Part shown: one piece after another, positions 1,728 through 29,400 of the stretch
Numbering within the stretch: position 1 is the first letter of the stretch
Layout: each line of letters begins with the position of its first letter
Source: Bdellovibrionales bacterium
Lineage (GTDB): Bacteria; Bdellovibrionota; Bdellovibrionia; Bdellovibrionales; UBA840
Reading direction: 5' to 3'
Assembly: GCA_037969075.1 (NCBI GenBank)
Contig: JBBKWS010000182.1
Location: forward strand, 1 to 37,566
Length of the DNA: 37,566 bases
Notes under the pieces: model-generated
What the model saw: only the letters and a program-made list of their open reading frames with translations
Told to the model about the DNA's origin: nothing
The model's database searches: none
Made by a program: the position numbers and the translations under genes

Positions 1728-4700
1728 TTAAGGGCATGTCTCCCACATTAGGTGCGGGTAATCACTGGCAGAGCACCACTTCCAATTACCGCTTACAGGT
1801 GTGAAGTCATAGCCCGCTGTTAAATAGATATTACCAGCAGCTTGGTTTTGCATTGCAGCTGTTGTTTGCCCAGACGGGGCACCTACGACAGGGCCACTAA
1901 AACCTATGGTCTTAGTCGATGTATCAAGATCCCAAAATGTGTTTGAGAAATATACGTACTCTTCAAATATATAACCAACAACTCCGTTTGCTAATACGTT
2001 AGGTGTATCTATTTGCACAGTCGAAAATGAATTGGTTAAAAAAGTTCTTTCATTGGTATTTCCAATGCCGTCATCATGATTTTGTGAATAACCAATGATA
2101 CCACCAAGGGAGCTTAAACCATTTTGAATGTGTCCATGTGCATAGGAATCAATAATTTCAATTACTCCGCCCGGTATAGAGCCAGTATTGTGATGGGCAA
2201 ATCCTACCAAACCGCCAGCACGGGTATTATTAGGTGTTAGATTGATCGTGCCGTTATAAAAAGATTTTTCTATTTTAAATAAAGTAGCTGAGTTTAAAGT
2301 CATCAAACCAACTAATCCACCAACTTCTGAGCTAGCTGTATTTGAAACTATAACATCAGCTGTTGAAGAGGATTTAGATACTGTGCCGTTGCCGTGAGAC
2401 ATAGTACCAATGAGTCCTCCTGCACGAGCTCCACCATTTAAAGTGATTGTACCTGATGTATGCACATTGGTTAAAGTAAAACCAAAAGTATTGCTGGCTG
2501 CCGTAACACCAATAATACCACCGACCGAGCCGTTGGACGATATATTTGCGTTTGAGCTAACATTATTGATAGTGTAATTAGCCGTTGCCGTTGTTAAATA
2601 ACCTATTATACCTCCAACCTCTGACAAGGCCGATGACACGTTGCCGCTATTGATTACGTCTTGCATGGACCCAGCAGCAGTAACATAGAGGCTACCTACT
2701 ATACCACCTATTACACTATTAGTGCCTGAAATTGCACCCAAGTTATAAGCTTGACTTATATTGGTAGTTCCAGAATTGGCAATGATTCCGCCTGCACGAT
2801 TGCGTCCGCTAATAGCTCCGTAATTATATGCATTTGTTAGAGTTATACTATTAGAAGAACCTATTATACCTCCTGTAATATCTTGTGTAGAGGAAATATT
2901 ACCGTAGTTATATGCTTGATTCATTATTAATGTGGAATCTACACTACCAATTACGCCCGCAGTATACGCTCCTACTGAGGTTACGTTATTATAATTATAA
3001 ACATTATTTACGCTACTACCGCTAATATTTGCGCGTCCAATAACTCCTGCAGTAACACTATTATTACCTGTTACAACAACATTTGAGTACAAATTAGATA
3101 CAGAGCTTATCCCGCCGTTAATATAACCTATCAGGCCACCTATTTCGCTTGATGCACCAGTAACCTGACCGCTTGCCCACAAATTATCAATGACATTGCC
3201 GTTAGTTGCAATCGGGTAGTAGTAACTCAATATACTGCCCACAAATTGTCTGCCGTGTAGATTAACATTAGTCATTCCTAAGTTTTTAATAGTATTGGGT
3301 GAGCCACTAGTATTTCTAAAAGCGCCAAACAACCCCAAGTAATCTTTTGCTGCATTGATATAAGTGTAATTGGCAATTACATGCCCATCCCCATCAAAGC
3401 TACCATTAAACGAAGTGGCAGCATCACCAATGTTGGTCCCGCCGATAGGTTCAAAGGTAAGACTATCTAGATCAATATTTGTCCCTAACTTAAAGCTATA
3501 TAAACCATTTAGATAATTATAAAGTCTACCATCAGATATTTTATATCTCATATTATTTAAATGCGCTACGCTACAAATTATAAACGGATTCATTGTAGTC
3601 CCACTTCCAGCAGCCATTTCAGTGCCCCAAGATCCGGGTAGGTCACAAATATGGGTTGGTGTAGATTGGTATAAGTAGGCGCCAAGGATTGAGCTAATAG
3701 AGCCCTCTGGATTTTGCACCGAAACGGTGGCTGTACCATTTGAACCGGCAGGCACACGACAAGTAAGCTTAGTAGTTAAGTGGATTTCTACATCTGTACA
3801 AGGTGAGCCACCAACAGACACGATAGTATCAGCAAGAAAATTATTTTTTGTTGCTTCAGAAAAACCTGTACCGGTGATGACTACCAGATCCCCACCAGCT
3901 GTTGGTCCCTGACTGCGTTTGATTGAACTTAAAACTAAAATATTATTAGATGTTACAGATAAATTAGCACCAGCTGTATTACCGGCTTGATCCTCTATTT
4001 CTAAATAATAACTAATAAATTTATTTACATCCGTTGGCCCACTAAGATTAGTTAGACTTGTTACGCCAACGTTACTATAAATTAAAGAGTCACTTGTGGT
4101 TGCTAAACTTTCTGTGTCAGATATTTTTTGAAAGATTCTAACTGTTATATTAGCCATTGCAGTTGTGTTATCGCTCATTGTCCAATTTAAATTCCAGCGT
4201 TTATAAGCATCTAATTTATTAGTCGTAAATGAACCAATAACAGGTACGGTCAAATCACTAGTTACAAAACTTCTAACGGTGCCATCACATCTGCGGTTGG
4301 CCGAACTATCTAATGCACATACTGAATAATAATAAGTCGTACCTTCGACTAAACCCGTATCGGTAAAGTTTAATGGACTGTGGCCAGCGTTAGTGCGCAA
4401 ACTACCATCATTAAATGGCTGTGTTGCATTAGCAAACGTAGTGTTAGCTTTTCTATATACTTGGTAGCTGATAGTGATACCCGGCTCACTAGCATATTGA
4501 TTATCTGTAGCGGCTAGCCAAGATAAAGTGTATGTAGGGCCAGCGCCAACTACAAGGTTTGAAGTAAATGCAGGTAGGGTTTGGTCAAGAGTACGTTTAT
4601 TTGCAAAACTTGAGCTTGGATCTAAGTAAGTCGTTTCGTTACCGACAGCATCATACGCTCTTACATGAAATTTATAAGTTCTATAGGGGTCAAGGTTAGT

Positions 4701-6629
4701 AACAGTGCAAGTAGTATCTGCTAAATTACAAGCACCTGGGCTAACACAAGCACAGTTTTTTAGTAAACTTAAACTATTATTTGGTGCCACAGAATAGACT
4801 TTAAAACCTTGATAATCTGCTGACCAAACTGGCTCGTACCATGTTACGGTCATCTCGCCTTCAGTAGATGAGATTTGATCTGCGGGGCCTTTGATTCCGG
4901 TAAAACCAGCGGGTGGGTTGACATCAGGTACAGCCACTGACTTTGCAGTATTTAAAGCAAACGAAGTGCAATTTTTTGAGCCACCTGGCAATTGATCTGC
5001 ATTGTCACAAGCATCAACAACGGCATAAACAACATCATAATCAGTGTAAGAAAAAATCGAACCATCAAATGACATTCCACTTGGGTTAGTGCCATGACTT
5101 CTAATAACCGTAGTAATATTGCCAGCTAAAGGTGTAGCAGTATTCTTCCAAAGTTTAATCCTGTACTCTAAAATATCAGAAGATACGCTTGCATTCCACG
5201 CAATACTTATTGTTCCCGTTAACGGTACATAGTTAATTGTTTGAATGTTATCAAAATTAGGCGGCGTACTATCTAATGTAGTTCGGCTTAAACTAGCGGT
5301 TGTATTAGAAGTGTTACCTGACTGATCTTGCGCCTTTAAACAAATAGCATATGTAGTGCGAGAGCTTAAGCCGGTTAGTGTTATTGTTCTTGCACCTGGT
5401 GCGTAGCCACTGGCTAAAACTTCATGTATCTGTGATCCATTTATACAAGGGTCAGAAGGAGTGCCTGGATAGGACGCAGAAGTACTATAAACGATATATT
5501 TATAAGTTCCGTCAGCGCTCTCAATACCTTCACGATCAATGGCAGTAAAACCAATAACCAACGACGAATCACTTGGAGCACCTAATGTTAAAGATGATAA
5601 ACCTACAAATGATGGAGCTGAAGTATCGCCCGTATTTAAAGACACTACATTCGTATTATTATTGTTATTTCCAGTTGGATCTTCATCCTGTACAATAAAA
5701 TGGTATTGCGTATTATCTATCACACCCGAGATACTTACAGATGTGTTAGGGTTTGCTAAATTAGCAACGACTAAAGTTTGCTCTAAAGTATAATCACTAA
5801 TATTAGTTCCACCGATGGCACCAACACGTTTATAGACATAGCGTTTTTTTACAGCGCCATTTGCTTCGACCCAAGGTATGTTTAATGTAACTTGAGAATT
5901 ATTAGCACTTGCAGAAGACGCGCCAGTAGTTAGTGGAGCCCCACCATCACTTAGTGTTAAGGCGCGTTCAACCACATTGGTATCGCAAACATTAAAACTC
6001 GTGCAGGCCCTTACACCAAAAGCGTAAGGCAATTCATCGCCTAGATTAGTTAGGGTATAAGAAAATGTGCCGGATGCTACTATTGATCGTGGGGTAGTTG
6101 TCCAATTTACGGTAGCGCCAGGATTAGCAAAAATTTGATAGGTACTTACTACGGGCCCTGTTGGATTAGCTGGCGACCAATTTACTCGTACTGATCTTGC
6201 CGTAAGGGCTGTTGCTGCTGTGATACCAGCAAAAACAGGAGCGTTAGCTGACATAGTGGTTAAGTGTAAAATATTAGAACCAGTTTTTGCTTTAAATGCT
6301 TTTGATCCTTCGCAAGTGTATTCGTACGTCGCAGCTTCTTGTAAGCCCGTATCAACAAATGAAGTACTAGCACGAGATGATGAAGAGTAGATAGCAGAAC
6401 CATTTCTATACACAGTGATGCGGTCATATTCTTGCGGAAACTCAAAGTTAACTAATATACTGGATGCATCTACTGCGCTACCATCAACACAGCCCAAAAA
6501 TGAATCAAATGGATCAGCGGATGCCCCACCACTTTCTTCTAAAGACCCTGAGCTTAAGCAAGCAGTTAGGGTCAGGCACAATAAAATGCCTGAAAAGAAT
6601 TTTTGAAGTACGTACGTGCCATTAGTCAT
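1728..6629 (-). CDS. Giant surface lipoprotein / putative adhesin with FN3-like repeats, IPT/TIG domain and GLUG-type repeats
   Basis: Lipobox LTAC; repeated ~110-aa beta modules with linkers DTSAPSF/DSTPPNF/DQTLPAF and motifs like YKFHVRAYDAVGN; GPTAGGDLVVITGTGF (IPT/TIG); GSGTTMNPFII, FNGSFDGDGHVI and many xGGLxG/GGIIG repeats (GLUG/ZmpB-like). Confidence 0.85.
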   Translation of the reverse strand: MTNGTYVLQKFFSGILLCLTLTACLSSGSLEESGGASADPFDSFLGCVDGSAVDASSILVNFEFPQEYDRITVYRNGSAIYSSSSRASTSFVDTGLQEAATYEYTCEGSKAFKAKTGSNILHLTTMSANAPVFAGITAATALTARSVRVNWSPANPTGPVVSTYQIFANPGATVNWTTTPRSIVASGTFSYTLTNLGDELPYAFGVRACTSFNVCDTNVVERALTLSDGGAPLTTGASSASANNSQVTLNIPWVEANGAVKKRYVYKRVGAIGGTNISDYTLEQTLVVANLANPNTSVSISGVIDNTQYHFIVQDEDPTGNNNNNTNVVSLNTGDTSAPSFVGLSSLTLGAPSDSSLVIGFTAIDREGIESADGTYKYIVYSTSASYPGTPSDPCINGSQIHEVLASGYAPGARTITLTGLSSRTTYAICLKAQDQSGNTSNTTASLSRTTLDSTPPNFDNIQTINYVPLTGTISIAWNASVSSDILEYRIKLWKNTATPLAGNITTVIRSHGTNPSGMSFDGSIFSYTDYDVVYAVVDACDNADQLPGGSKNCTSFALNTAKSVAVPDVNPPAGFTGIKGPADQISSTEGEMTVTWYEPVWSADYQGFKVYSVAPNNSLSLLKNCACVSPGACNLADTTCTVTNLDPYRTYKFHVRAYDAVGNETTYLDPSSSFANKRTLDQTLPAFTSNLVVGAGPTYTLSWLAATDNQYASEPGITISYQVYRKANTTFANATQPFNDGSLRTNAGHSPLNFTDTGLVEGTTYYYSVCALDSSANRRCDGTVRSFVTSDLTVPVIGSFTTNKLDAYKRWNLNWTMSDNTTAMANITVRIFQKISDTESLATTSDSLIYSNVGVTSLTNLSGPTDVNKFISYYLEIEDQAGNTAGANLSVTSNNILVLSSIKRSQGPTAGGDLVVITGTGFSEATKNNFLADTIVSVGGSPCTDVEIHLTTKLTCRVPAGSNGTATVSVQNPEGSISSILGAYLYQSTPTHICDLPGSWGTEMAAGSGTTMNPFIICSVAHLNNMRYKISDGRLYNYLNGLYSFKLGTNIDLDSLTFEPIGGTNIGDAATSFNGSFDGDGHVIANYTYINAAKDYLGLFGAFRNTSGSPNTIKNLGMTNVNLHGRQFVGSILSYYYPIATNGNVIDNLWASGQVTGASSEIGGLIGYINGGISSVSNLYSNVVVTGNNSVTAGVIGRANISGSSVNNVYNYNNVTSVGAYTAGVIGSVDSTLIMNQAYNYGNISSTQDITGGIIGSSNSITLTNAYNYGAISGRNRAGGIIANSGTTNISQAYNLGAISGTNSVIGGIVGSLYVTAAGSMQDVINSGNVSSALSEVGGIIGYLTTATANYTINNVSSNANISSNGSVGGIIGVTAASNTFGFTLTNVHTSGTITLNGGARAGGLIGTMSHGNGTVSKSSSTADVIVSNTASSEVGGLVGLMTLNSATLFKIEKSFYNGTINLTPNNTRAGGLVGFAHHNTGSIPGGVIEIIDSYAHGHIQNGLSSLGGIIGYSQNHDDGIGNTNERTFLTNSFSTVQIDTPNVLANGVVGYIFEEYVYFSNTFWDLDTSTKTIGFSGPVVGAPSGQTTAAMQNQAAGNIYLTAGYDFTPVSGNWKWCSASDYPHLMWETCP

Positions 6630-6827: not shown

Positions 6828-7472
6828 ATGAGTCAATTAACTAAATGGATAAGCCTTTTATTAATAGCTATGCTGTTGAATGCTTGTTCGCTGTTAAAAT
6901 TTAATGACAAAAAAGAAATCACTATCGCTAGCATTCCCAGCTCTGCAGAAGTGGTTAATGCCGCCGGAGAAGTGGTTGGAGTATCACCTATATCTTTACA
7001 AGCCGAGACTTTGGCTAAATTAACAGACGGCGATAAACTTATATTTAGCGTTCGAAAACCTGGGTTTGAGACTCAAACCTTAGTTGTTGACCTGTCAGTA
7101 ACTAACATAAGCAGTCATGTAGTAAAATTAAAAGAACAAAGTGCATCTACATTTTCTAATGATATTTTATTGCAATACTCAAAACAAACCAATGAAATGA
7201 TTCGAGAAATTCTATCCATCCAAGGTCTTATTGTCGCTTCAGAATGGGCTTTAGCTGATGAGAGATTAAATGGTTTTGAAAAGAAGTTTTCAAATATAGC
7301 TGCGGCATTAGTGCTTAGGGCCAATGTAGAAATCAACCGTGGACAAGTACCACGAGCACTTGAGTACTTAAAACGAGCTAGAAGTATCGATCCCGATGAT
7401 ACCTATATATCTAGGTTGATCTTAAGCTTACAAGGCAGAGTACCAGCAGGGGAGGCTAAAAATGAAAATTAG
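6828..7472 (+). CDS. Lipoprotein with PEGA-like domain and C-terminal TPR
   Basis: Lipobox LNAC; ITIASIPSSAEV...VGVSPI...VRKPGFE (PEGA); ALEYLKRARSIDPDD (TPR). Confidence 0.75.
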   Translation: MSQLTKWISLLLIAMLLNACSLLKFNDKKEITIASIPSSAEVVNAAGEVVGVSPISLQAETLAKLTDGDKLIFSVRKPGFETQTLVVDLSVTNISSHVVKLKEQSASTFSNDILLQYSKQTNEMIREILSIQGLIVASEWALADERLNGFEKKFSNIAAALVLRANVEINRGQVPRALEYLKRARSIDPDDTYISRLILSLQGRVPAGEAKNEN

Positions 7473-9204
7473 CCTTTTAGCTTTAATATTTGTATTCACT
7501 TCAGTTCTAATGGCTGAAGAATTTCCTTCAACTACGCCTGTAAGTGTAATTGAAGCTAATTATGAAAAAGAAATTTTAAGTTCCATTGAGCAAATGTTAG
7601 GAAAAGACCTAGGCACATTAGTTAAAGTAAAAGCTAAAGTTGAAGACACTGAAAAAAACGCTAAGCCTAGCTTAGATGTGGCTTACTTACCAATCCCACC
7701 GACCAAGATAAATCTTTTAGGGCCAAATGCAAATAATCAAAAAATATCTAATTTAGATGTAAATATTAAAATATTAGCAGAAATGGACCCAAATCTAGAG
7801 ACCCAAATTAAGGACCTTGTTAACTTCTCAATTAAAAATATACCAGCAAGCATTAAGATAGAAAAATTCAATGTAAACAAAGATCAAAACCGTAAAATAG
7901 CTTCAGATGAAAACAAAGAAAATAAACCACTGTCAGAATTGATACAAGAGTGGAAGTGGTCATTCTTCTTACTTCTAGGTTTGCTGTCTATTGTTGGTTT
8001 TTTACTAGCCATGAAAATAATGTCAAATGGCTTGCAAACAGCCGCCGATAATTTAGCGGGGGGTTTTCGTTTAAACAATAGGACAACTCCGCCTGACGAT
8101 AAATCAGACAAAGAAGAAGCCGAAATCAAGTCCGAAACTATTGATGTAGAACATAGCTTATATAAAGATCAAATCCCTACGAATGTATCATTTTTAGAAG
8201 ATATTCTTAAAGAGGATAGTAGCGCCTTTTTTACAGCTTTAACAAGTGATGTAAAAGACAAAATGGGCTTTAAGTGGCTTTTAACAAAAATGAATCCCGA
8301 AGTTGTTAGTCTGATTAAAAAAGTAATGGATAAAAGTCGCTTGCAAGAGCTGCTTGCAACGGATGAAAACGAAGATGATCTAAAGATTAATTTAGCAGAG
8401 TGGTTGCAAAAATTCACAGAACGACAGCTAGTAAATAAAATGAAAGAAGAAAATATTATTGATCGAGCTTTATCAGCAAGTCAAAAAGTAAAATTATACT
8501 CATGGAACGCTGAAATATTTAATACAGGCAAAGACAATGTTTCTGACAATGCGATTTGGCGTTTGGCAGCAGAGGTTTTAACTCAAAATGAATTTGCTGA
8601 TTTAACAAAAGGTATTGATGCAGAACTTTGGAATAAGGTAATACTATCAGCCGACGTTAATGACGAGGCCGTTTTAGCTGCATATCAAAATTTAGAAGAA
8701 TTTGTTGAAAAAGATAAGAAAAGTGAAGGATCTAGTAAAAATAAGTATATCAATGAAAGACTTTTAGTGCCAATGATTGATAGTATTCGATCAAAACCAT
8801 TTGGACAAGATGATGAAATGATCCAATCACTTTGTGTGAATAACAAAGAATTAGAAGAGATCTTACGTGCAAAGGTATGGACGGCAGCTAACTTAAGAGA
8901 TATTCCTGAAACCTTTATAAAGTCATTTATATACGAACAAAGTACAGAGGTCGTTTTTTCTTTAATATACTCTTTGCCAGAGGATTTGGCTAAATCTATA
9001 GACTCAATGTTAGATTCAGGAAATAAAAAAATTATCATCCAAGATTTGGTTCAGAGGGCAAAACAAAAAGCTACAGATAAAGAACAGCTTGCAGCAAGAA
9101 ATTTAGCCAGAAAAGCAATCGATGACTTACGTACTAGTTACCAAAAAGGTGATTTTAAATTAAAATCAGAAGATAATAAGGGGAAGGATTTGTATGCTGC
9201 ATAA
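7462..9204 (+). CDS. Membrane protein, putative FliF ring domain-TM-FliG C-terminal domain fusion
   Basis: N-terminal signal; segment resembling FliF RBM3; one TM (about 7957-8013); C-terminal ~140 aa aligns by eye with FliG_C. Confidence 0.6.
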   Translation: MKISLLALIFVFTSVLMAEEFPSTTPVSVIEANYEKEILSSIEQMLGKDLGTLVKVKAKVEDTEKNAKPSLDVAYLPIPPTKINLLGPNANNQKISNLDVNIKILAEMDPNLETQIKDLVNFSIKNIPASIKIEKFNVNKDQNRKIASDENKENKPLSELIQEWKWSFFLLLGLLSIVGFLLAMKIMSNGLQTAADNLAGGFRLNNRTTPPDDKSDKEEAEIKSETIDVEHSLYKDQIPTNVSFLEDILKEDSSAFFTALTSDVKDKMGFKWLLTKMNPEVVSLIKKVMDKSRLQELLATDENEDDLKINLAEWLQKFTERQLVNKMKEENIIDRALSASQKVKLYSWNAEIFNTGKDNVSDNAIWRLAAEVLTQNEFADLTKGIDAELWNKVILSADVNDEAVLAAYQNLEEFVEKDKKSEGSSKNKYINERLLVPMIDSIRSKPFGQDDEMIQSLCVNNKELEEILRAKVWTAANLRDIPETFIKSFIYEQSTEVVFSLIYSLPEDLAKSIDSMLDSGNKKIIIQDLVQRAKQKATDKEQLAARNLARKAIDDLRTSYQKGDFKLKSEDNKGKDLYAA

Positions 9205-9805
9205 ATACATGCTTCTGACCTATATCTTGTTTTCTTGTAATTTTGCAGTTGCTGAAAGTGAAGATTTTAAATCAAAGTTAAGCCTTAGAAGTGGCCTAGA
9301 GTCTTTAGTTAACAAAGGGGAGTTATCTGGCAGTCAGACAAATATTGGAGGCTTTAATATAGGCTATAGTTTGTTCTTAAACTCAAGCCTAGCGATTATT
9401 TTTGGATACGCAGCCTCTTTTGATCTTGGCAACGCAAAGCAAACTGTTAACTCTTATATTTTGGCTGGTAAGTATTACTTTTCAGGGCTTGGTACAACAA
9501 TAGAAAAAAAAGATGAGCTTGGTACAAGTATCAGTAAGTCAAATAAAGCCTACTACGTTGGGTCTAGTTACGGTTTGCATGATTATTTTTTAGGAAGTGA
9601 TTCTTTATCAATAGACGCAGAAGTTGCAACCATAAAGGGAACCTACTCTACTACTAATGTATTTATTGGTGCGGATTATTTTTTAACTAAAAAATTGGAA
9701 TTAAATTTTGAGGCAGGTATTACTATACTTGCGTTTGCTGCTAGCGATAATCGTGTAAAAATACATCATACTTGGTTATTAGCTGGCTTAAATTGGGTAT
9801 TTTGA
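9194..9805 (+). CDS. Outer-membrane beta-barrel protein (small, OmpW/OmpA-TM-like)
   Basis: Signal peptide; amphipathic strands (GFNIGYSLFL, FIGADYFLTKKLELNFEAG); terminal LAGLNWVF beta-signal. Confidence 0.75.
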   Translation: MLHKYMLLTYILFSCNFAVAESEDFKSKLSLRSGLESLVNKGELSGSQTNIGGFNIGYSLFLNSSLAIIFGYAASFDLGNAKQTVNSYILAGKYYFSGLGTTIEKKDELGTSISKSNKAYYVGSSYGLHDYFLGSDSLSIDAEVATIKGTYSTTNVFIGADYFLTKKLELNFEAGITILAFAASDNRVKIHHTWLLAGLNWVF

Positions 9806-9812
9806 GGTAAAA

Positions 9813-11462
9813 ATGAAAGATTCTACATTTTCACTAAAAATGGATTGGCTAGATCAGGACGCTTTTGATTCTGATGTTGAATCATTAAACCTTAATGGTT
9901 CAAACATAGGTAATGATGTAGATGTGCTATCACAAGTTAAAGTCATTGACGAGTCTTGGCAGAAAGCATTTTTTAACTTTAAAGAATTAAAAGTTAATTT
10001 TAAAAAAACAATCATTGCATATAACAATGAATTAAAAGAAAAAAGTATCTTAGAAGAAAATATTTTAGAGCAAAAGAATATACATTCAAAGCAGCAAAAA
10101 AGAATTGAGCTCTTAGCTAACCATTTGCAAGAAAGAACTTTACAAGTGAATACGCTTGGTACTCAAACTTTTGAAAAACAGAAGCTAATCGATGAATTAA
10201 ATCAAGCAAATGCCAAAATCAATCAAGACTTAAATAATTTAAATCTTAAGATTAGAAACCTTCAGCTAGAAAATGATCAATTAAAAAATGAATCTGCAAA
10301 TCTAAAGGCAAAAGATATTAATAATACTGTTAAGCAAAAAGCCAATCTTAATAAAATTGACGGTTTAGAAGTAAGTATTATAAAGCTTGAAGAAGAGATC
10401 GCGCAATATGTTGATTTTTATGAGACTAAAGTAAAAAAACTTACTGAAAATTTAAACTCATTAAATTCTCACTATAATCTTTTGAAAAAAGAAAATAATC
10501 AGTATCAGACATTACTTAATAAGTTACAAAAACAGTCAGAAGAAGAAAAATCTTTAAGAGATGAACTTTCTACTAACTTAACTATTGAAGTGAGCTTGCG
10601 AAAGAATCATGAAAGCTTCATTGAAAAACTACAAAAAGAAAAAGCTGAGCTTAATCGAGAAATTAGAGAAGTTAACAATGAACGCTTTGATTTATATAAA
10701 AAAAATGAAATTGCACTTTTAAGTATAGATGAGTTAAAAACTGACAAGATGAGCGCCGCAAAAAAGATCGAGACCTTGCTGAAGTCTCAGCATGCATTAG
10801 ATGAAGAAAAACAAGAGCTTCAAATGACCTGCCGCGAACTAAAGCAAAGTATTACCAATGAAAAAGAAGCAAACTTGCAAGCGCAAGGAAATATAGATTT
10901 ACTACATAAGAAATTAAGTTTTTTTGAAGAGCAACTGCAAGATAGCAAATCTGAATTTATAAGTGCTTCAGCTTTGAATCAAAAGAATTTACAGGTATTA
11001 GAATCAAAAAATAATGATCTTGTAGCAGAATTACAGCAATCAAAACAAGACAGAGCAGAGTTAAATAGACAGCTTGAGCTTAAAAGTATTAATGAAGAAA
11101 ATTTACTTAATCAATTAAATGAAAAACATAAAATGATTGAACGCCTAGATAACGAATCTATAAATTTAAAAAATAATATAGCCCAGTTAATCTTAGTGCA
11201 ACAATCAGATAAGCAAATGATTTTTAATTTCCTGCAATTTATTGAGCGAATCATAATTGAAAATAACTCGCTGATAACTAAAAAAGACCAATTTTATGCG
11301 AAGCAGTTATCTGATACTACCAACACAATGCAGGAACGTATGGAGCGATTAGTTTCTTGGGTGTATTTGTCAAATAACAATAGCGCAAATCAAAAGCCTT
11401 TAGACGCAGATTCAAAGGCAATTAGAGATTGGTTGAATCAGTTGTTTTTTGAATCGAAATAA
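9813..11462 (+). CDS. Long coiled-coil protein of unknown function
   Basis: 549 aa, L/E/K/Q/N-rich heptads, almost no Pro; no signal peptide, TM or Walker A. Confidence 0.8.
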   Translation: MKDSTFSLKMDWLDQDAFDSDVESLNLNGSNIGNDVDVLSQVKVIDESWQKAFFNFKELKVNFKKTIIAYNNELKEKSILEENILEQKNIHSKQQKRIELLANHLQERTLQVNTLGTQTFEKQKLIDELNQANAKINQDLNNLNLKIRNLQLENDQLKNESANLKAKDINNTVKQKANLNKIDGLEVSIIKLEEEIAQYVDFYETKVKKLTENLNSLNSHYNLLKKENNQYQTLLNKLQKQSEEEKSLRDELSTNLTIEVSLRKNHESFIEKLQKEKAELNREIREVNNERFDLYKKNEIALLSIDELKTDKMSAAKKIETLLKSQHALDEEKQELQMTCRELKQSITNEKEANLQAQGNIDLLHKKLSFFEEQLQDSKSEFISASALNQKNLQVLESKNNDLVAELQQSKQDRAELNRQLELKSINEENLLNQLNEKHKMIERLDNESINLKNNIAQLILVQQSDKQMIFNFLQFIERIIIENNSLITKKDQFYAKQLSDTTNTMQERMERLVSWVYLSNNNSANQKPLDADSKAIRDWLNQLFFESK

Positions 11463-11536
11463 GTTTTGGCTTGTTAAGTATTTTTTTGATTTTAATAATG
11501 TTTATGAATGTGCGATTACGCTAAAAGGATGAATGT

Positions 11537-12322
11537 ATGAATTTTACAGCAATTTTTGGATTACTCTCAGCCATCGCAGTGCTAGGTTACGGTACGATGT
11601 CGGCTACATCCAACTGGAAAATCTTTTTAGATCCCCATGCAATAGCGATAGTTATTGGTGGAACAATGGCTGCCACATTAATATGTTTTCCGTTTTCTAC
11701 CATTAGAACTTTGTTCACTGTATTTTTTAAAAAGATCATAGGTAAGTTTGACGGGACTCACTCTCTATTGATTGAAGAGATAGTAATCTTATCAAAAGGC
11801 TACAGAGAAGACAGCCAATTCTTAAAAAATGGTGTTAACGCTATTAAATTTCCTTTCTTAAAAGAAGCGATACAACTCATGGTGGAAGGTGGAATCCCAG
11901 AAGATAAAATGGATGCCATTTTACAACAAAGAGCTGCAACCCATTTTAAGAGGTATGAGGATGAAGCAAATATTTTTAAAGTAATGGGAAAATTTCCTCC
12001 CGCTTTTGGTTTGTTGGGTACAACCCTTGGGATGATCGCTCTTTTGCAAAACATTGGATCACCTGATTCATTTAAACTTTTAGGCCCTGCCATGGCTATC
12101 GGATTAGTGGCCACTCTCTACGGTATTGCAATTGCAAACCTAGTGTTTATCCCAATGGGAGAAAACCTAATTAAATTAAATAAAGAAGACCAAGTCTCAC
12201 GTAAAATGGTGATAGTAGGAATTAAACTTTTAAGAGAAAAAGAACATCCTCTAATTGTTGAAGAGTTTTTAAAGAGTTATTTACTTCCGTTTGAAAGAAA
12301 CAAGCTTAAAAAGGTTGCTTAA
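11537..12322 (+). CDS. motA: Stator protein MotA/PomA family
   Basis: FLDPHAIAIVIGGT, PPAFGLLGTTLGMI, LGPAMAIGLVATLYG, ANLVFIPMG, EHPLIVEEFL. Confidence 0.95.
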   Translation: MNFTAIFGLLSAIAVLGYGTMSATSNWKIFLDPHAIAIVIGGTMAATLICFPFSTIRTLFTVFFKKIIGKFDGTHSLLIEEIVILSKGYREDSQFLKNGVNAIKFPFLKEAIQLMVEGGIPEDKMDAILQQRAATHFKRYEDEANIFKVMGKFPPAFGLLGTTLGMIALLQNIGSPDSFKLLGPAMAIGLVATLYGIAIANLVFIPMGENLIKLNKEDQVSRKMVIVGIKLLREKEHPLIVEEFLKSYLLPFERNKLKKVA

Positions 12323-12324
12323 AA

Positions 12325-13053
12325 ATGTCGGCTGCTGAAAAACTAAAAGACGAAGAAATAAAAGCTGCGGCAAAGCCAGCGGTCTATTTTTTTGAAGAAG
12401 CAGACTCGCCGTCTCATATGGATGAAGGGGAAGGCAACTGGCTTATCTCGTATGCTGATATGATGACCTTACTTGTAGGATTTTTTGTAATGCTTCTTAG
12501 TTTTTCAAAAATTGATGCCGAGGTTTTTGAAAAGGTAAAACAAGAAACCTCAAAAATATTTGGCGGAGAGTACCAAATTCCATTTTCTGAATTATCAAAA
12601 AGCCTTGATAAAGCCATTTCAGAAAAAGGTCTAGAGAATCAGGTGATTGTCGAAAAGAGTGCTACTGGCGTTAATATAACATTTAGGGGCGCATTGTTTT
12701 TTGACTCAGCCTCTGTTGCGATGAAGCCTGAAGCGCTGGATCTGCTATTAAAATTACAACCTATCATTTCAAGTAAAGCCAAAGAGTACGAATTATTAAT
12801 CGAAGGGCATACTGACGATAGCCCAATCAATGCAGGTGTGATTGCCTCCAACTGGGAGCTATCAAGCCTGCGAGCAAGTTCTGTCTTGCGATTTTTTTTA
12901 GATAAAGGTTTTGATCCTCAAAAATTAAAGGCAATCGGAATGGCTGATACAAGGCCTATCTTGCCTAATCGAGATAACCAAGGAAAACCAATTACAGACA
13001 ATCAATCGCAAAACAGAAGAGTGGTTATTAAAATTATTCCTAATTTTGATTAA
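12325..13053 (+). CDS. motB: Stator protein MotB with OmpA-like peptidoglycan-binding domain
   Basis: WLISYADMMTLL (essential Asp), IEGHTDD, SNWELSSLRA, NRRV. Confidence 0.95.
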   Translation: MSAAEKLKDEEIKAAAKPAVYFFEEADSPSHMDEGEGNWLISYADMMTLLVGFFVMLLSFSKIDAEVFEKVKQETSKIFGGEYQIPFSELSKSLDKAISEKGLENQVIVEKSATGVNITFRGALFFDSASVAMKPEALDLLLKLQPIISSKAKEYELLIEGHTDDSPINAGVIASNWELSSLRASSVLRFFLDKGFDPQKLKAIGMADTRPILPNRDNQGKPITDNQSQNRRVVIKIIPNFD

Positions 13054-13063
13054 AAGGTAAAAG

Positions 13064-14197
13064 ATGCAGCACCTAAGCCTTAAATTTAAATTCTTATTGC
13101 TGTCTGCACTTATGTCCCTAGCACTAGTATCTATAGGATATTTTTCAAGTTATTATTTATCAAAAAATCATTATTTAGGTTTTATCTCTCAGATGATGAC
13201 GGATCATCAAACGTTATACTACCAAACTGCAGAGGATTTAAAAAAGTTAGAACTGCCAGAGCCTGAGCTTAAAAATTGGCTTGGATCTAATATTAACTCT
13301 ATGGGTTTTATTAAAGATAGTGAGAAAAAACAAACCTTGTTTATGGTTAGAAGGTATTCTGACAACACATTTGGCGTTGAAATTAGTGAAGTAAGCTTTT
13401 TAGCTTGGCTAGAAAGTATAGACACTAAGTTGTTATTAACGTTTTTATCTTTGTCTATCCTATTGGGGGTATTTTCTTTCATTTACCTTAGCTTTGCTCT
13501 TTCTCCATTGAAACGACTAAGAAGAGCCACTGAAGATATACTAGCTGGCAGGCTTGATATGAATTTAAGTTACAATGCCAATGACGAGCTTGGAATGATT
13601 TATAGATCACTTGGTAAGTTGACTAAAGATTTAGAGATAAAAGATCAGGCCCTTGAAAAGTACACTGAGCTTGCGACCACAGATGGAATGACAGGCTTAA
13701 AAAATCATCGGTTTTTTAAAGAAAGTTTTCAGCGCGAATTAAATTTAGCAAAGAGACATAATGATATCTGCGGATTGATTTTATTAGATGTGGATCATTT
13801 TAAAAAATTCAATGATACCTATGGACACCAGCAAGGCGATGAGGTTTTACGAGGTGTTGCAAAGACATTGAAAGATCTTGCTAGAAATACAGACGTAGTC
13901 GCTAGATATGGTGGGGAAGAATTTGTAGTAGTATTACCTAGAACAGATATTGAGGGGCTAAAAATAGCTGCCGAAAAATTAAGGTCCGCACTAGAGACTA
14001 CTAAAGTCCCGCATTTGGCTGAGCCTGGTAAGACCCTTTCGGTTACTGCGAGTTTTGGTGTGGTAGCAATTTCTGGTAGTGATGCTATTGATCCTACTTA
14101 CACCTTATATGTAGAGACTGCTGATAAAAACTTGTATGAAGCAAAAAAAAGAGGAAGAAACTGTGCCGTAGTTAGTCAGTGGAAACATGCTGCATGA
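13064..14197 (+). CDS. Membrane-bound HAMP-GGDEF diguanylate cyclase
   Basis: Two TMs, HAMP (PLKRL...DELG), TDGMTGLKN, DVDHFKKFNDTYGHQQGD, RNTD I-site, RYGGEEF. Confidence 0.95.
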   Translation: MQHLSLKFKFLLLSALMSLALVSIGYFSSYYLSKNHYLGFISQMMTDHQTLYYQTAEDLKKLELPEPELKNWLGSNINSMGFIKDSEKKQTLFMVRRYSDNTFGVEISEVSFLAWLESIDTKLLLTFLSLSILLGVFSFIYLSFALSPLKRLRRATEDILAGRLDMNLSYNANDELGMIYRSLGKLTKDLEIKDQALEKYTELATTDGMTGLKNHRFFKESFQRELNLAKRHNDICGLILLDVDHFKKFNDTYGHQQGDEVLRGVAKTLKDLARNTDVVARYGGEEFVVVLPRTDIEGLKIAAEKLRSALETTKVPHLAEPGKTLSVTASFGVVAISGSDAIDPTYTLYVETADKNLYEAKKRGRNCAVVSQWKHAA

Positions 14198-14949
14198 TCT
14201 ATCTAGTCATAATATTTAAAGTACTCATATCATACTCTTTGGCAGACATTGAGATTAAAAACGGCATTATTGTTAAAAATGGTATTTCGTACAAGCAAGT
14301 AATAGCAATAGAAGATAATGATATTTTACTATGTAACGGTTTTTGCCAAATAGTCAGCGAAGATAAAATCATCGAGTTTCAATATAGAGGATTTGGTTTA
14401 TTTAAGGACATTATTAAGTTAGCAAAGATTGAGGCTGAATGGTCTACAATGCAATCTGAACTGCAAGCAAGAAACAGTGAAGCTCTTACCGACAAGCAAG
14501 AAGCAAAAGAAAAACCAAATGATAATTCTAAAGAGCCAAAAAGTGACGATACTGTGCAGATTGAGGATGCGAACGAAATTTCTCAACCTACACTAACAAA
14601 AGAAAACCTCTTGCGATTTAAGGTACCATACCCTGATAATAATTTAATTTTTCTGCACACAAATGGTGGAACAATTCACTTTTTACCTAAACAGAGGTGC
14701 GAAAGTGCAGACGGTTGTATTGGTTTTGTTAAAAGTCTAACGACTAATCAGACTTACAGAGTTACATTTAAGCAGGGAGAGATTCCATTTTGGTCTCTTA
14801 AAATTACGAAATCTAAATCTGACCTAAATTACCAATGGTTTTTTGAGGACGGGTATGAAAAGAATACCTTTGAATTTTATTTTTGGAATAATAATTCTAT
14901 AAATTTTGAAAAAGCTCTTTCGCTTAAGTATGAAATTGAAATCCTATAA
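14194..14949 (+). CDS. Secreted hypothetical protein
   Basis: ATG at 14194 overlaps the cyclase stop (ATGA); hydrophobic N-terminus ending in SLA; no recognisable domain. Confidence 0.65.
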   Translation: MIYLVIIFKVLISYSLADIEIKNGIIVKNGISYKQVIAIEDNDILLCNGFCQIVSEDKIIEFQYRGFGLFKDIIKLAKIEAEWSTMQSELQARNSEALTDKQEAKEKPNDNSKEPKSDDTVQIEDANEISQPTLTKENLLRFKVPYPDNNLIFLHTNGGTIHFLPKQRCESADGCIGFVKSLTTNQTYRVTFKQGEIPFWSLKITKSKSDLNYQWFFEDGYEKNTFEFYFWNNNSINFEKALSLKYEIEIL

Positions 14950-15603: not shown

Positions 15604-15740
15604 GAAAAATCTCAGGGATATTTAGCTTAGATTGATCTATATGCCTTAATTTTAGGACCTAAAGCCCAACCTGCAGATAAAAAGCTAAGCTTTTGAACTT
15701 ACTGGTCTTTATTAAGGCTACATATGGTCGAAAAGACCTT

Positions 15741-17738
15741 ATGTGGATTATTCTATTACTACAGCTCAGTCTCTCAATAGCCAGCGAAAAATACAATGTC
15801 TGTGGGATCACCATCAACTCGGATGAAGAGATTAAAAGTTTCAAAAAACACTTAAATCCTAAAGATTTCAACTTTGTTGAATTAACAGATGTAATTGATC
15901 CAGCTGCTATTCAAAAAAAAGAAGTTCCTAATGATTGGTTTGATGCTGTTTGCGAAAAAGATATTCGTTGTGACGTCTTAGTTATCTCGGGTCATTTTGG
16001 TGGAAGCTTTTTTGGAGACAAAGGAATTGGCCTATCATTAGATGCTCTTGAAAAGTACTCTTGCAATGGAAAATGTAAAAACATTTTAAACTCTGCTAAA
16101 GAAGTCTTCTTGATGGGTTGCAACACTCTAGCCACAAAAGATTCTGATCACAGAACTCCAGAGCAGTACCTGCAAGTACTACTAGATGACGACATCGACC
16201 GTGCACAAGCAGAGAGAATCGTGCAAGCAAGATACGGTGCGCTTGGGGATTCTTTTAAAGATCGAATGCAGAGGGTATTTGAAAATGTCCCTAATATTTA
16301 TGGATTCACTTCCGTTGGCCCATCAGGCAAAACAGTAAAACCATTTTTAGATAAGTATTTCAATAAGGTAGGGGATTACAAAGAGCACATCTTGAAAATT
16401 CAAACACAAGACATTGTTAATTTAATTGAAGGAGCGAACAAAGCGGTTAAAAAATTCAATAACCCAGTGCTAGCAGAAGTGATGGCCACAACCGCTCATG
16501 CTGAATGTGCAGGGATTACCTCTTCAGACCCAGCTTATAGAATAAAAAAAGACATTTGTAAATTTTATGACAATAACATTTCACAAGAAGATAAAGTTGG
16601 ATTAGCAGAAGCACTACTAACAACTGATGATGCACTTTTATACATACCAACGATCAGTTCATATTTTTCTACTTATCAAAGTGATGCGGTTAAAAAATTA
16701 AAAAATAATAAAAAAATAGAAGCTCTATTAATTAAAGTTGCTGAGGATGTAAAAGGGTCCCCCGCTACATATATCGATATAATTAGCTTACAAGAAAAAA
16801 TTGGCTATATTAGCGAAAAGAAATTCTTAGCAGAGGTAAAACAAGTTTTATTACCTTATGTTAAAAAGATGGATAGAGAAAGTGCAGACCTATTGTGCTC
16901 AGTAGAAGATATGGATAGCTTGTATGAAAGATATGAGAAGATTGCGTTTAAAGCTTCAGACATGAATTTATCAAAGCTTGGCACAAGAGACGGGGTGGGC
17001 ACATTAGGTTGCATCAATGTAGCAGGTGAAAGTAAACAAGAAGTATCCTCAAAATTAGTTAGCTATATGGGGCAAAAAAGAGCGGACCCAGAGTACGAAG
17101 CAGAATATTATTATATCCTAGGAAAAAATATTACAGCAGCTGACTTTAAAATTGCCGAGCCACAAATGATAAAAACTTTTTCGGCACAAAAAAATTTAGA
17201 ATACAAAATGGCACTACAAATTTCTTTAGCTACTGCCTATGAGAGAAGTAAAGATATGAAAGGCCTAGAGGAACTATATAAAACAGGGGATCTTTATGCC
17301 GGTAACGACTGGGATAGCAGGCAAATAATTTTAGAAGCCGCCAGTCACCTAGAGGAGAGATCTGAAGTTTTTGTTAAAATTGCCATGGATAAAACTAGGT
17401 CTAACTTAAATAATACGGATTTATATGGGGCAGCTCAAATGGTCGGTATTTTTAAAACTGATCAAGATATAGAGTCACTGAAGCAGATCATTTCAACGCA
17501 AAATACAAATTCTATAAATAGTTACTTCTCAGTTATTTCAGATAAAAGTGCGGTTTCACCAAAGGTTATGGATATATATGTAAATACGGTTCTTGGTAGT
17601 CATGAGGCTGATTGGGTGAGTATAAATGAAGTCATTGCCTCAAAGTTAACTAGGGAGCAAAAAGACAAACTACTACAGTTTGCTACTGAACATCCAGGTC
17701 ACACAGCAGCTTATTCTATAAAAGAGCACTGTAAATAA
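15741..17738 (+). CDS. Secreted hypothetical protein, possible caspase/CHAT-fold N-terminal domain and helical C-terminus
   Basis: Likely start ATG 15741 gives signal peptide MWIILLLQLSLSIA; motifs VLVISGHFGG and VFLMGCNT. Confidence 0.65.
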   Translation: MWIILLLQLSLSIASEKYNVCGITINSDEEIKSFKKHLNPKDFNFVELTDVIDPAAIQKKEVPNDWFDAVCEKDIRCDVLVISGHFGGSFFGDKGIGLSLDALEKYSCNGKCKNILNSAKEVFLMGCNTLATKDSDHRTPEQYLQVLLDDDIDRAQAERIVQARYGALGDSFKDRMQRVFENVPNIYGFTSVGPSGKTVKPFLDKYFNKVGDYKEHILKIQTQDIVNLIEGANKAVKKFNNPVLAEVMATTAHAECAGITSSDPAYRIKKDICKFYDNNISQEDKVGLAEALLTTDDALLYIPTISSYFSTYQSDAVKKLKNNKKIEALLIKVAEDVKGSPATYIDIISLQEKIGYISEKKFLAEVKQVLLPYVKKMDRESADLLCSVEDMDSLYERYEKIAFKASDMNLSKLGTRDGVGTLGCINVAGESKQEVSSKLVSYMGQKRADPEYEAEYYYILGKNITAADFKIAEPQMIKTFSAQKNLEYKMALQISLATAYERSKDMKGLEELYKTGDLYAGNDWDSRQIILEAASHLEERSEVFVKIAMDKTRSNLNNTDLYGAAQMVGIFKTDQDIESLKQIISTQNTNSINSYFSVISDKSAVSPKVMDIYVNTVLGSHEADWVSINEVIASKLTREQKDKLLQFATEHPGHTAAYSIKEHCK

Positions 17739-27515: not shown

Positions 27516-28394
27516 ATGAAGGCGATTATTTTAGCAGGTGGATCAGGTACCAGGCTGTATCCATCCACCAAAATTATAACTAAGCAACTTTTGCCCGTAT
27601 ATGACAAGCCGATGATCTATTATCCGCTTTCTACTGTTATGCTTACAGGCATTCGCGATATCTTAATTATTTCTACGCCGCAAGATTTACCTATGTATAA
27701 ACAACTTTTAGGCGATGGCTCGCAATTAGGGCTTCGTTTAGAATATGTTGAGCAGCAAAAACCAGAAGGAATTGCACAGGCCTTTACTTTAGGTGAAACT
27801 TTTATTGGAAAAGACAATGTTTGCCTTGTTTTAGGTGATAATATTTTTTACGGCTACGGTTTTAGCGGTATGTTAGAAGAGGCAGCACAATTAAAGTCAG
27901 GCGCCTTGGTATTTAGTTATTATGTAAAAGATCCTGAGCGCTACGGTGTGTCCGAATTTGATAGTGATGGAAATGTAATAAGTATCGAAGAAAAACCAAT
28001 TAAACCAAAATCTAATTATGCTGTTACGGGACTTTATTTTTATGACAATCAAGTGGTTGAAATTGCAAAAAAGCTAAAACCCTCTGCTCGTGGAGAACTT
28101 GAAATCACGGATGTTAATAAAGAGTATTTAAAACAAAAAACTTTAAAAGTTAAAAAAATGGGCCGTGGTATTGCGTGGCTTGATACTGGCACACATGAGA
28201 GTTTGTTGGATGCCTCAAATTTTATTGCCAGTATCGAAAACCGTCAAGGCTTAAAAGTAGCTTGTATCGAAGAAATTGCTTACCGAAAAAAATATATTAC
28301 TAAGAACCAATTAATGGCACTGGCCGAGCCAATACTAAAAAGCCAATATGGCCAGTATTTAATTAGTTTGATTAAAGAGGAAGCCAATGTCTAA
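27516..28394 (+). CDS. rfbA: Glucose-1-phosphate thymidylyltransferase
   Basis: [43 protein letters not shown]. Confidence 0.97.
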
Positions 28395-29400
28395 AGAAAA
28401 TATTTTAGTAACTGGAGGAATGGGTTTTATTGGTTCCAACTTTATTCCATATATTATTAATAAATATCCAGACTACGACGTTATCAATCTTGATAAACTT
28501 ACCTATGCTGCGAATACCTCTAATCTCTCAGAAGTTATGGGTCATGAAAGATATACATTTATCGAAGGTGATATCTGTGATAAGGCTTTGATTAAAAACT
28601 TATTTAATAAATATCAGTTTCAAAAAGTCATTCATTTTGCAGCAGAGTCGCATGTAGATAACTCTATTAATGGTCCCGAGGTTTTTATTCAAACTAATAT
28701 TTATGGTACATGGAATCTTTTGCATGCAGCCTATCAATTATGGATGAATGGACCTAATCAATATAAAACAGAGTTTACGTCGGCGACATTTCAGCACATT
28801 TCGACCGACGAGGTCTATGGTAGTTTAGGTGATGAGGGCTTATTTTCTGAGGCTACGCCCTATGCCCCCAACTCTCCGTATAGTGCGTCCAAAGCAAGCT
28901 CTGATATGATAGCTCGCAGTTACTTTCATACCTATGGTTTGAGAGTGGTGACTTCAAATTGCTCAAATAACTATGGACCAAAACAGCACAATGAAAAACT
29001 AATACCTACAATTATCAGAAAAGCATTGCAACATGAACCAATTCCTATTTACGGAGACGGTAAAAATATAAGAGATTGGTTGTATGTATTAGATCATTGT
29101 ACGGGTATAGATCTATGTATGCACAAGGGAAAGCCAGGAGAAACATATAATATCGGTGGAAGAAACGAGAGAACTAATCTGCAAATAGTAAATACCATTT
29201 GTGAAATTTTAGACTCAAAGAAATCTCTGCCAAATCAAGAGTCCTATAAAAAATTGATCAGTTTTGTCGCCGATAGGCCAGGACACGATAAAAGGTACGC
29301 CATCGATGCTAGTAAAATCGAAGAGGGCTTAGACTGGAAAGCCTCTGAAGACTTTGAATCTGGTATTTTAAAAACCGTAGAATGGTACTTAAATTTATAA
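28387..29400 (+). CDS. rfbB: dTDP-glucose 4,6-dehydratase
   Basis: [40 protein letters not shown]. Confidence 0.97.

Follow-up and report, generated by a model that had tools for sequence, protein, structure and literature searches.

In the core of the bacterial flagellar motor, FliF forms the MS-ring from about 33-34 subunits, and FliG, a soluble protein encoded beside fliF, docks non-covalently on the FliF C-terminus and works with stators of the MotA5B2 or PomA5B2 type. Mutants of Salmonella in which FliF and FliG are fused are reportedly functional. Here we analyzed a window of 37,566 nucleotides (nt) from a Bdellovibrionales bacterium (assembly GCA_037969075.1, contig JBBKWS010000182.1, positions 1 to 37,566; "the window" means this whole stretch), focusing on an ATG-initiated open reading frame of 580 amino acids (aa) at 7462..9204 on the forward strand. 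A previous interpretation, made without database searches and called here the sequence-only reading, had proposed that this frame is a natural one-gene rotor in which a FliF ring motif, one transmembrane (TM) helix and the C-terminal domain of FliG are joined, and all peptide strings that it quoted were present in the frame. Our results are best explained by a protein that unites the C-terminal half of FliF with a complete FliG homologue and acts with its own MotA/MotB pair in a non-flagellar machine of the cell envelope, a reading to which we assign a probability of roughly 0.6.

Joined FliF and FliG proteins have been described in two settings. Laboratory fusions, in Vibrio (PMC10941966) and reportedly also in Salmonella, indicate that joined proteins can form rings and serve as a rotor in principle; those constructs combine full-length FliF with FliG in a complete flagellum, whereas the protein in the window is natural, truncated, highly diverged and encoded outside any flagellar locus. 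The nearest precedent is the natural FliF-FliG fusion of Chlamydiaceae (Bergeron 2016, PMC4768692), which according to that paper is a protein of about 330 aa with an RBM2-like domain (RBM, ring-building motif), a second RBM-like domain and a FliG_M-like region only, and which is discussed there as a partner of the injectisome. Both are single natural proteins that start with a signal sequence and combine periplasmic RBM-type domain(s), through a TM helix, with a cytoplasmic FliG-like domain, and both are found without a full flagellar gene set. No stator accompanies the chlamydial fusion, and the present protein differs from it in matching RBM3, in carrying all of FliG, the torque-generating C domain included, and in being co-encoded with a dedicated MotAB. 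Ion-driven motors encoded together with periplasmic or outer-membrane (OM) partners are also found in Tol-Pal, ExbBD-TonB, AglRQS-Glt and the GldLM/type IX secretion system with SprB-type adhesins, and large adhesins belong to the gliding systems among them. Their motors are of the non-flagellar TolQ/ExbB or GldL lineages and act on TM or periplasmic partners, while the window encodes a flagellar-type MotAB and a predicted cytoplasmic FliG partner. A full-text literature search (supplements excluded) found no published description of such a protein or module.

Compared with the flagellar core, the locus keeps the order RBM3, TM helix, cytoplasmic tail and FliG N, M and C domains, the position of the FliG_C hinge motif, a charged equivalent of the torque helix, and a flagellar-type stator with plug and peptidoglycan-binding domain. 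It departs from that core in combining the rotor parts in one polypeptide, in bearing a signal peptide instead of the first TM helix, RBM1 and RBM2 of FliF, in having a loop of median 39 aa instead of the β-collar, and in lacking the EHPQR motif, which we take to be the FliM-binding motif of FliG_M. FliM/FliN, export gate, rod, hook and filament genes are absent nearby, and the partners are instead a lipoprotein, an OM barrel and giant lipoproteins. Unlike canonical FliG, the protein is membrane-anchored, carries a periplasmic domain and lies outside the flagellar locus. Two of these features go beyond the sequence-only reading, namely the signal peptide that replaces the N-terminal part of FliF and the dedicated MotA/MotB pair, the latter being the strongest functional clue.

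Searched exhaustively with phmmer, 1.84 billion cluster representatives contained 101 relatives at E ≤ 1e-3, of which 79 reached E ≤ 1e-10 and 21 reached E ≤ 1e-30; almost every one is 540-650 aa long and aligns end to end at 18-28% identity. With some 100 relatives among cluster representatives aligned in this manner, the pattern in the reading frame is more than chance. An alignment of 69 full-length family members was used for the family profile and for an AlphaFold2 model of the protein, which had a mean predicted local distance difference test score (pLDDT) of 84. In a sample of 401 genomes of Bdellovibrionota, a near-full-length match at E ≤ 1e-40 was listed in 21, and 174 matched at E ≤ 1e-5, a count that includes canonical FliG and short FliG_C proteins. 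Frames of 230-350 aa with a FliG_C match are common in genomes of the phylum, and the genome of the window itself has a similar 217-aa protein (contig C140, 2782-3435, locus L081) that is scarcely more than FliG_C (Pfam 1.7e-7). The extent of the family beyond Bdellovibrionota was judged from ESM Atlas cluster labels, and the neighbours there include clusters with YscJ_FliF_C, FliG_M and FliG_C, which we treat as a lead only.

The cytoplasmic part, about 390 helical residues, is a complete FliG homologue with N, M and C domains in three collinear ARM-like helical domains. When the family profile was compared with all PDB sequences, the top match was FliG 3hjl_A (E 5.5e-10, profile positions 387-581 on FliG 145-326), and five more FliG sequences were matched at E 8e-4 to 0.012. 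Pfam FliG_C (PF01706) was matched by 34 of the 69 members at E ≤ 0.1, with a best value of 1e-8. The hhalign comparison with 17 FliG proteins from the same genome and its relatives was collinear over FliG 21-353 (E 3.9e-4, probability 36%), and the C part of a 99-sequence superfamily profile reached a probability of 82% (E 1.1e-5, FliG 15-352), with control values of E 0.16 against FliF and 0.0095 against reversed FliG. In a different genus of the order, a 577-aa homologue (L058, genome G167) exceeded the Pfam cut-offs for FliG_C (40.2 bits, cut-off 23.3), FliG_M and FliG_N. Foldseek with the full model placed FliG at all of ranks 1-8 (best 8umx_B, E 9e-5, 333 columns), and VIA-align superposed residues 264-574 on residues 4-331 of Salmonella FliG (8umx_B, Z 11.7, 278 residues) and also found the FliG C domain 1qc7_A (Z 11.0, root-mean-square deviation (rmsd) 4.1); sequence identity in the structural alignments of the 580-aa protein was 13-15%.

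The sequence-only reading had let the C-terminus track FliG_C from about position 8773 (residue 438). Profile and structure matches agree with it on the region, but the claim was too narrow, as the whole FliG N, M and C set is present, and the six-helix FliG_C-like part begins somewhat later, near residue 450-470. Its proposed equivalence of VWTA to the FliG motif MFxF was recovered by hhalign and by HMMER, which pairs 'vrervWtpskL' with 'IREKMFTFEDI' of 3hjl, and the Trp is kept in 67 of the 69 members. In the torque-helix equivalent, charges are conserved at K/R523 (67/69), D528 (65/69) and K/R532 (59/69), with D528 aligned to the second Asp of the FliG 'ED' pair. The charged torque-helix residues of E. 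coli FliG are R281 and D288/D289.

The periplasmic domain is homologous to the FliF RBM3 ring domain. In the AlphaFold2 model it consists of a helix (25-46), a strand (53-60), a low-confidence loop (61-94), a strand (95-105), a helix (110-123) and a final strand (129-136), and identical elements were obtained when the domain was modelled alone from a 22-sequence alignment (pLDDT 79). Both models reproduce the split helix-strand/strand-helix-strand pattern noticed in the sequence-only reading, as well as its much shorter insertion, which measures 12-75 aa (median 39) in the 69 members versus roughly 110 aa in FliF. Among 48,161 representative PDB chains, the top two matches of the isolated-domain model were the FliF MS-ring chains 8z5v_A (Z 11.1, FliF 260-452) and 6scn_A (Z 11.0, FliF 232-438), and a third FliF chain, 8z4d_1, had Z 9.9 and rmsd 3.0. 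The full model matched a dozen FliF ring entries at rmsd 2.4-2.9 Å over 91-97 residues spanning FliF 228-438, with rmsd 2.7-2.8 Å for the leading alignments of 95-97 residues; 7cg7_A, for example, had Z 11.3 (rmsd 2.7, 95 aligned, FliF 232-438). PrgK, SpoIIIAH and SpoIIIAG trailed at Z 7.5-8.8. The structural alignment leaves out the β-collar by jumping from about FliF 270 to 380, so that the helix and first strand map before the collar and the remaining elements after it. The insertion at this place contains a nearly invariant D-x-G-Y-L-P-x-P motif, with Y75 and the last Pro (P79) each kept in 65/69 members.

Sequence profiles pointed to the same part of FliF. The family profile fitted best at FliF 229-547 among 17 FliF proteins, a match that is weak alone (E 0.0056, probability 6.5%), and a sister family introduced below independently selected FliF 244-546 (E 8.3e-4). 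The N part of the superfamily profile fell on FliF 229-486, that is RBM3 and the second TM helix, with a probability of 81% and E 1.2e-5 (controls gave E 0.35 with FliG and 0.2 with reversed FliF), and the whole superfamily profile aligned its positions 25-314 with FliF 229-546 (E 5.9e-5). Taken together, the alignments of the N and C parts show that the whole protein is collinear with FliF (RBM3, second TM helix and tail) followed by FliG (N, M and C). Profile and structural matches were thus found both to FliG_C and to a ring-building motif. The Pfam models YscJ_FliF (PF01514) and YscJ_FliF_C (PF08345) find the canonical FliF alone in this genome.

The N-terminal TM helix, RBM1 and RBM2 of FliF are absent, and a hydrophobic signal-like segment (residues 3-21 by hydropathy) leads straight into the RBM3-like domain. 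A single hydrophobic helix (165-205, hydropathy peak 168-186) follows, as expected from the one TM segment named in the sequence-only reading, and the model is all-helical from 228 to 575. The predicted topology is accordingly that of a type-I inner-membrane protein, in which a signal peptide precedes the periplasmic domain and a single TM helix connects the latter to the cytoplasmic domain.

The gene belongs to a block of eight same-strand genes (6828-14949), overlapping or 2-74 nt apart, which form an apparent operon (Table 1). Judged by sequence, the MotA and MotB encoded in it are of the flagellar type, with a MotA_ExbB channel domain in MotA and a TM Asp, a plug and an OmpA-like domain in MotB. 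The closest PDB matches of MotA were MotA 8ucs_C (3.7e-35) and PomA (5e-29), and that of MotB was MotB 6ysf_A (3.5e-27). MotA matched the NCBIfam PomA model at 2.2e-42, below the cut-off of that model, and the best NCBIfam models for the pair (PomA/MotA/MotD) were all under their equivalog cut-offs.

We then searched the reading frames around 22 related loci from 20 Bdellovibrionota genomes with the window proteins. MotA and MotB occurred together at 14 of the 22 loci, and at one more MotA is cut by the contig end. A homologue of the lipoprotein lay beside the FliG-like gene at 17 loci, the OM barrel at 14, the giant lipoprotein within the fetched stretch at 11 and the GGDEF protein at 3. Gene order differs among the loci, and one surveyed genome contains three complete modules. 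In the genome of the window, 13 MotA_ExbB and 6 MotB-plug matches were found, and four of the six MotAB pairs adjoin a superfamily protein of 575-628 aa (contigs C182, which is the window, C82, C78 and C193). The topology predicted for this protein is the same in all four modules, with a TM helix near residue 165-220 after the signal segment, and each module also has a gene of barrel size (~192 aa). The C78 protein represents a sister family found in 38 of 301 phylum genomes, which aligned with the 69-member alignment over its full length in hhalign (98.3%, E 1.3e-14, 536 columns) and has MotB at most 1.5 kb away in 28 of 30 loci. Comparison with the superfamily profile gave probabilities of 70% for the C82 protein and 64% for the C193 protein (E 4e-5 and 7e-5); for the C193 paralogue, single-sequence hhalign against the 69-member alignment was uninformative, and family or superfamily profiles were required. 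The minus-strand operon around the 577-aa homologue (L058, 9021-15791, in a complete genome) encodes in turn MotA, MotB, a tetratricopeptide repeat (TPR) protein of 302 aa, a barrel-like protein of 194 aa, a 325-aa protein and the FliG-like protein, and offers a lead to a module that is headed by a motAB pair and has a Pfam-detectable FliG-like membrane protein. This operon adjoins genes for a HAMP-SpoIIE phosphatase and a YkuD L,D-transpeptidase.

Several findings weigh against our reading. Searches with the 580-aa protein alone were negative in both Pfam (E ≤ 1) and NCBIfam (E ≤ 0.01), and MotAB was not seen at four loci (L041, L042, L049 and L052) with at least 7 kb on both sides. Together with the match of 12 of the 69 members to Pfam MgtE_N, this would suit a generic ARM or MgtE_N-type sensing or scaffolding domain, with MotAB neighbours that are coincidental or serve another partner. 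Such an explanation is hardly credible in our opinion, as FliG, not MgtE, tops the sequence and structure matches over three collinear domains, and adjacency to MotAB recurs in two paralogous families at the frequencies given above.

A second set of adverse findings concerns the ring and its contact with the stator. OsmC/Ohr structures reached Z 9.5-10.3 with the periplasmic domain, which ties them with FliF within 1 Z (Z 10.2 against 11.1 among the 48,161 chains), the RBM fold being a common arrangement, and Foldseek E values for the isolated domain were just 2.5e-3 to 2e-2. The structural tie between FliF and OsmC is broken by the sequence profiles, which favour FliF RBM3; the assignment of the periplasmic part to the FliF C-terminal ring motif in the sequence-only reading therefore stands as the best structural and profile match, qualified by the closeness of OsmC/Ohr. 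The β-collar is lacking. At the positions of the loop charges R and E in the E. coli-type MotA of the same genome (contig C69; E. coli R90 and E98), the 20 module MotAs show no conservation, and the position equivalent to FliG R281 is Gly in 65/69 members, so the textbook stator-rotor charge pairs are not conserved. The idea that charges had been exchanged in compensation between the MotA E98 and FliG R281 positions was rejected, because the MotA positions vary across modules. Two modules of this genome have MotA and MotB that are 97% identical beside FliG-like proteins too diverged to be linked by phmmer, which disfavours a tightly co-evolved interface.

These observations bear on a different view of the machine, in which the protein is a force transducer or track and not a closed rotor, with the rotating MotA pentamer engaging the FliG-like domain, dragging or cyclically pulling single copies or short arrays and passing the force through the periplasmic domain to the lipoprotein and barrel, in the manner of TolQR-TolA, ExbBD-TonB or AglRQS-Glt. 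The envelope-spanning set of inner-membrane motor, TPR lipoprotein and OM barrel resembles the logic of Tol-Pal and Agl-Glt, the β-collar is missing together with any rod or export-gate partner that would occupy or require a ring, and the canonical charge pairs are not kept. We nevertheless regard a transducer as unlikely, since the periplasmic domain matches the ring-building RBM3 of FliF best and not TolA or TonB, and since the partners of TolQR and ExbBD place a TM helix beside or inside the motor, whereas homology here implies a cytoplasmic contact between FliG_C and MotA. A four-copy complex prediction of the periplasmic domain scored 0.21 and 0.01 against a mark of 0.42 and speaks neither for nor against a ring.

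The loss of the EHPQR-type motif, where the local FliG 'EHPQT' is aligned by hhalign to the consensus 'aaWR', is a further departure from FliG. It also tells against an accessory role in the flagellum, in which a membrane-anchored FliG paralogue would park, recruit or regulate spare stators, as a reservoir or clutch, or serve as an alternative rotor subunit at some stage of the life cycle. In favour of such a role, the gene content, with canonical fliF and fliG, is that of a flagellated organism, and the module MotA and MotB are of flagellar type. Cyclic di-GMP (c-di-GMP) brakes flagellar motors, and the GGDEF enzyme of the operon would provide a parallel. Furthermore, according to a 2026 review, the single flagellum of B. 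bacteriovorus is believed to be driven by three motAB pairs. The gene is accompanied, however, by the lipoprotein, the OM barrel and giant lipoproteins and not by flagellar genes, up to three or four modules with a stator each occur per genome, and a periplasmic RBM3-like domain would be pointless in a cytoplasmic parking site for stators. We therefore consider an accessory role quite improbable.

For the FliF-FliG protein acting with its own stator outside the flagellum, we propose the following mechanism. The RBM3-like domain would oligomerise at the periplasmic face of the inner membrane and hold a ring or array of FliG-like domains beneath it. A stator of the MotA5B2 type, encoded four genes downstream of the FliG-like gene, would be anchored to peptidoglycan through MotB, and ion flow would drive it against the FliG_C-like domain, presumably by contact with MotA, turning or dragging the assembly. 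Ring formation and rotation, as implied by the word rotor, are predictions from homology. On the periplasmic side, the D-x-G-Y-L-P-x-P loop may couple the assembly to the lipoprotein and the small OM barrel. The assembly would then act at the cell surface, its likeliest targets being the adjacent giant lipoproteins, which it might move as adhesins, as in surface motility, or deploy, though the link between the module and these lipoproteins is speculative. The system would be separate from the flagellum, given that the 32 window frames scanned contain no further flagellar family (no rod, hook, export or C-ring protein, and no FliM/FliN), that the canonical fliF-fliG of this genome lies on another contig (C110), and that four modules each have their own motAB.

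On this basis the locus would present a natural minimal torque core of the flagellum, in which an RBM3 domain, FliG and MotAB are found but export apparatus, rod, C-ring and filament are not. It raises the questions of how small an assembly can be and still respond to a MotAB stator, and of what else such a motor drives. Flagellar-type MotAB is generally regarded as specific to the flagellum, and a 2025 stator phylogeny in mBio labels the MotAB/PomAB clade 'flagellar ion transporters'; if our reading is true, the modules are a counter-example to this view. The gliding machinery of Bdellovibrio 'remains unidentified', and its motor and adhesins are called a major open challenge, in another 2026 review, and a multi-copy module of motor and giant lipoprotein is a candidate for it. 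In terms of flagellar evolution, the family may have arisen by exaptation from flagellar components, or it may be related to an ancestral rotor. As a tentative and somewhat doubtful extension, the modules may constitute a flagellum-independent rotary or rack-and-pinion envelope machine that is the engine of gliding or prey contact in Bdellovibrionota, some 'flagellar' motAB genes may belong to it, and the family may be a living relative of a pre-flagellar rotor.

Table 1 Features of the FliF-FliG protein and of neighbouring genes in the window.
Feature	Coordinates	Strand	Basis or remark
FliF(RBM3)-TM-FliG-like protein, 580 aa	7462..9204	+	Open reading frame; family of 101 cluster representatives; AlphaFold2 model
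N-terminal signal-peptide-like hydrophobic segment, residues 1-19, MKISLLALIFVFTSVLMA	7462..7518	+	Hydropathy peak at residues 3-21; predicted cleavage
Periplasmic RBM3-like domain, residues 22-140, alpha-beta / insert / beta-alpha-beta	7525..7881	+	Predicted secondary structure; structural and profile matches to FliF
Short insertion at the place of the FliF beta-collar, residues 61-94, conserved D-x-G-Y-L-P-x-P	7642..7743	+	Low pLDDT; conservation in 69 members
Single TM helix, residues 165-186	7954..8019	+	AlphaFold2 model; hydropathy
Cytoplasmic linker and helices, residues 187-263, collinear with the FliF C-terminal tail	8020..8250	+	Profile alignments; putative equivalent of the FliG-binding tail
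Full-length FliG-like region, residues 264-575, N, M and C domains	8251..9186	+	VIA-align, profile and hhalign matches
FliG torque-helix equivalent, residues 521-536, charges K/R523, D528, K/R532	9022..9069	+	Profile alignment to 3hjl_A; conservation
Giant lipoprotein, 1633 aa, lipobox LTLTAC, FN3 and IPT/TIG domains, divergent	1728..6629	-	Pfam; C-terminal part of a homologue matches GLUG
Lipoprotein, 214 aa, lipobox LLNAC, C-terminal TPR	6828..7472	+	Overlaps the start of the 580-aa gene by 11 nt; homologue matches Pfam PEGA
Secreted protein, 203 aa, probably a small OM beta-barrel, end ...NWVF	9194..9805	+	Homologues weakly match Pfam OMP_b-brl; overlaps the end of the 580-aa gene by 11 nt
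Cytoplasmic coiled-coil protein, 549 aa	9813..11462	+	Weak coiled-coil/SMC-type matches only; sequence not conserved in other loci
MotA/PomA-type stator A subunit, 261 aa	11537..12322	+	Pfam MotA_ExbB 7.9e-21
MotB-type stator B subunit, 242 aa, plug and OmpA-like peptidoglycan-binding domain	12325..13053	+	Pfam MotB_plug 2.6e-15, OmpA 3.4e-13
Membrane HAMP-GGDEF protein, GGEEF site present	13064..14197	+	GGDEF 2.6e-47
Secreted or membrane protein, 256 aa, final gene of the same-strand block	14179..14949	+	Homologues in locus L008 and on contigs C82 and C193

Part of the operon has a second copy in the same genome. The MotA-MotB-GGDEF-256-aa block (11481-14949) is duplicated on contig C82 (2572-6041, locus L077) with 87.5% DNA identity, and the four proteins are 97, 97, 93 and 82% identical, while the FliG-like, lipoprotein and barrel genes beside it are too diverged for phmmer. 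Either the stator half was recently duplicated or converted, or the assembly, whose contamination estimate is 5.7%, combines two strains. On C82, a HipA-type kinase gene (9873-11189, HipA_C 5e-46) lies between the module and its giant lipoprotein gene. The 256-aa protein at the end of the block belongs to no Pfam or NCBIfam family, and its gene accompanies the MotAB-GGDEF block on C82 and at L008. The 549-aa protein, which has no TM helix and is inserted between the barrel gene and motA, shows no similarity to the 594-aa gene at the equivalent place of L008 and may be a lineage-specific cytoplasmic scaffold.

Tiny residues are conserved at the C-terminus of the family, the last two positions being AA in 41, AS in 13 and VA in 9 of the 69 members. 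The 580-aa protein ends ...DLYAA (9187-9204), and ...KHAA closes the GGDEF protein encoded in the operon. Tiny-residue C-termini are reminiscent of ssrA-type C-terminal degrons, and by this analogy the protein may be subject to regulated proteolysis.

A scan of the window gave 27 promoter-like sites versus 30.8 expected. Elsewhere in the window are a Fic/DOC gene (496-876) and a TTG-initiated gene for a 681-aa secreted or membrane protein (15693-17738), for which no Pfam or NCBIfam family was found. The set at 27516-31794, which encodes a nucleotidyl transferase, a 4,6-dehydratase, an RmlD-type reductase and a 3,5-epimerase of the dTDP-rhamnose pathway together with a group-1 glycosyltransferase, is ordinary surface-polysaccharide biosynthesis.

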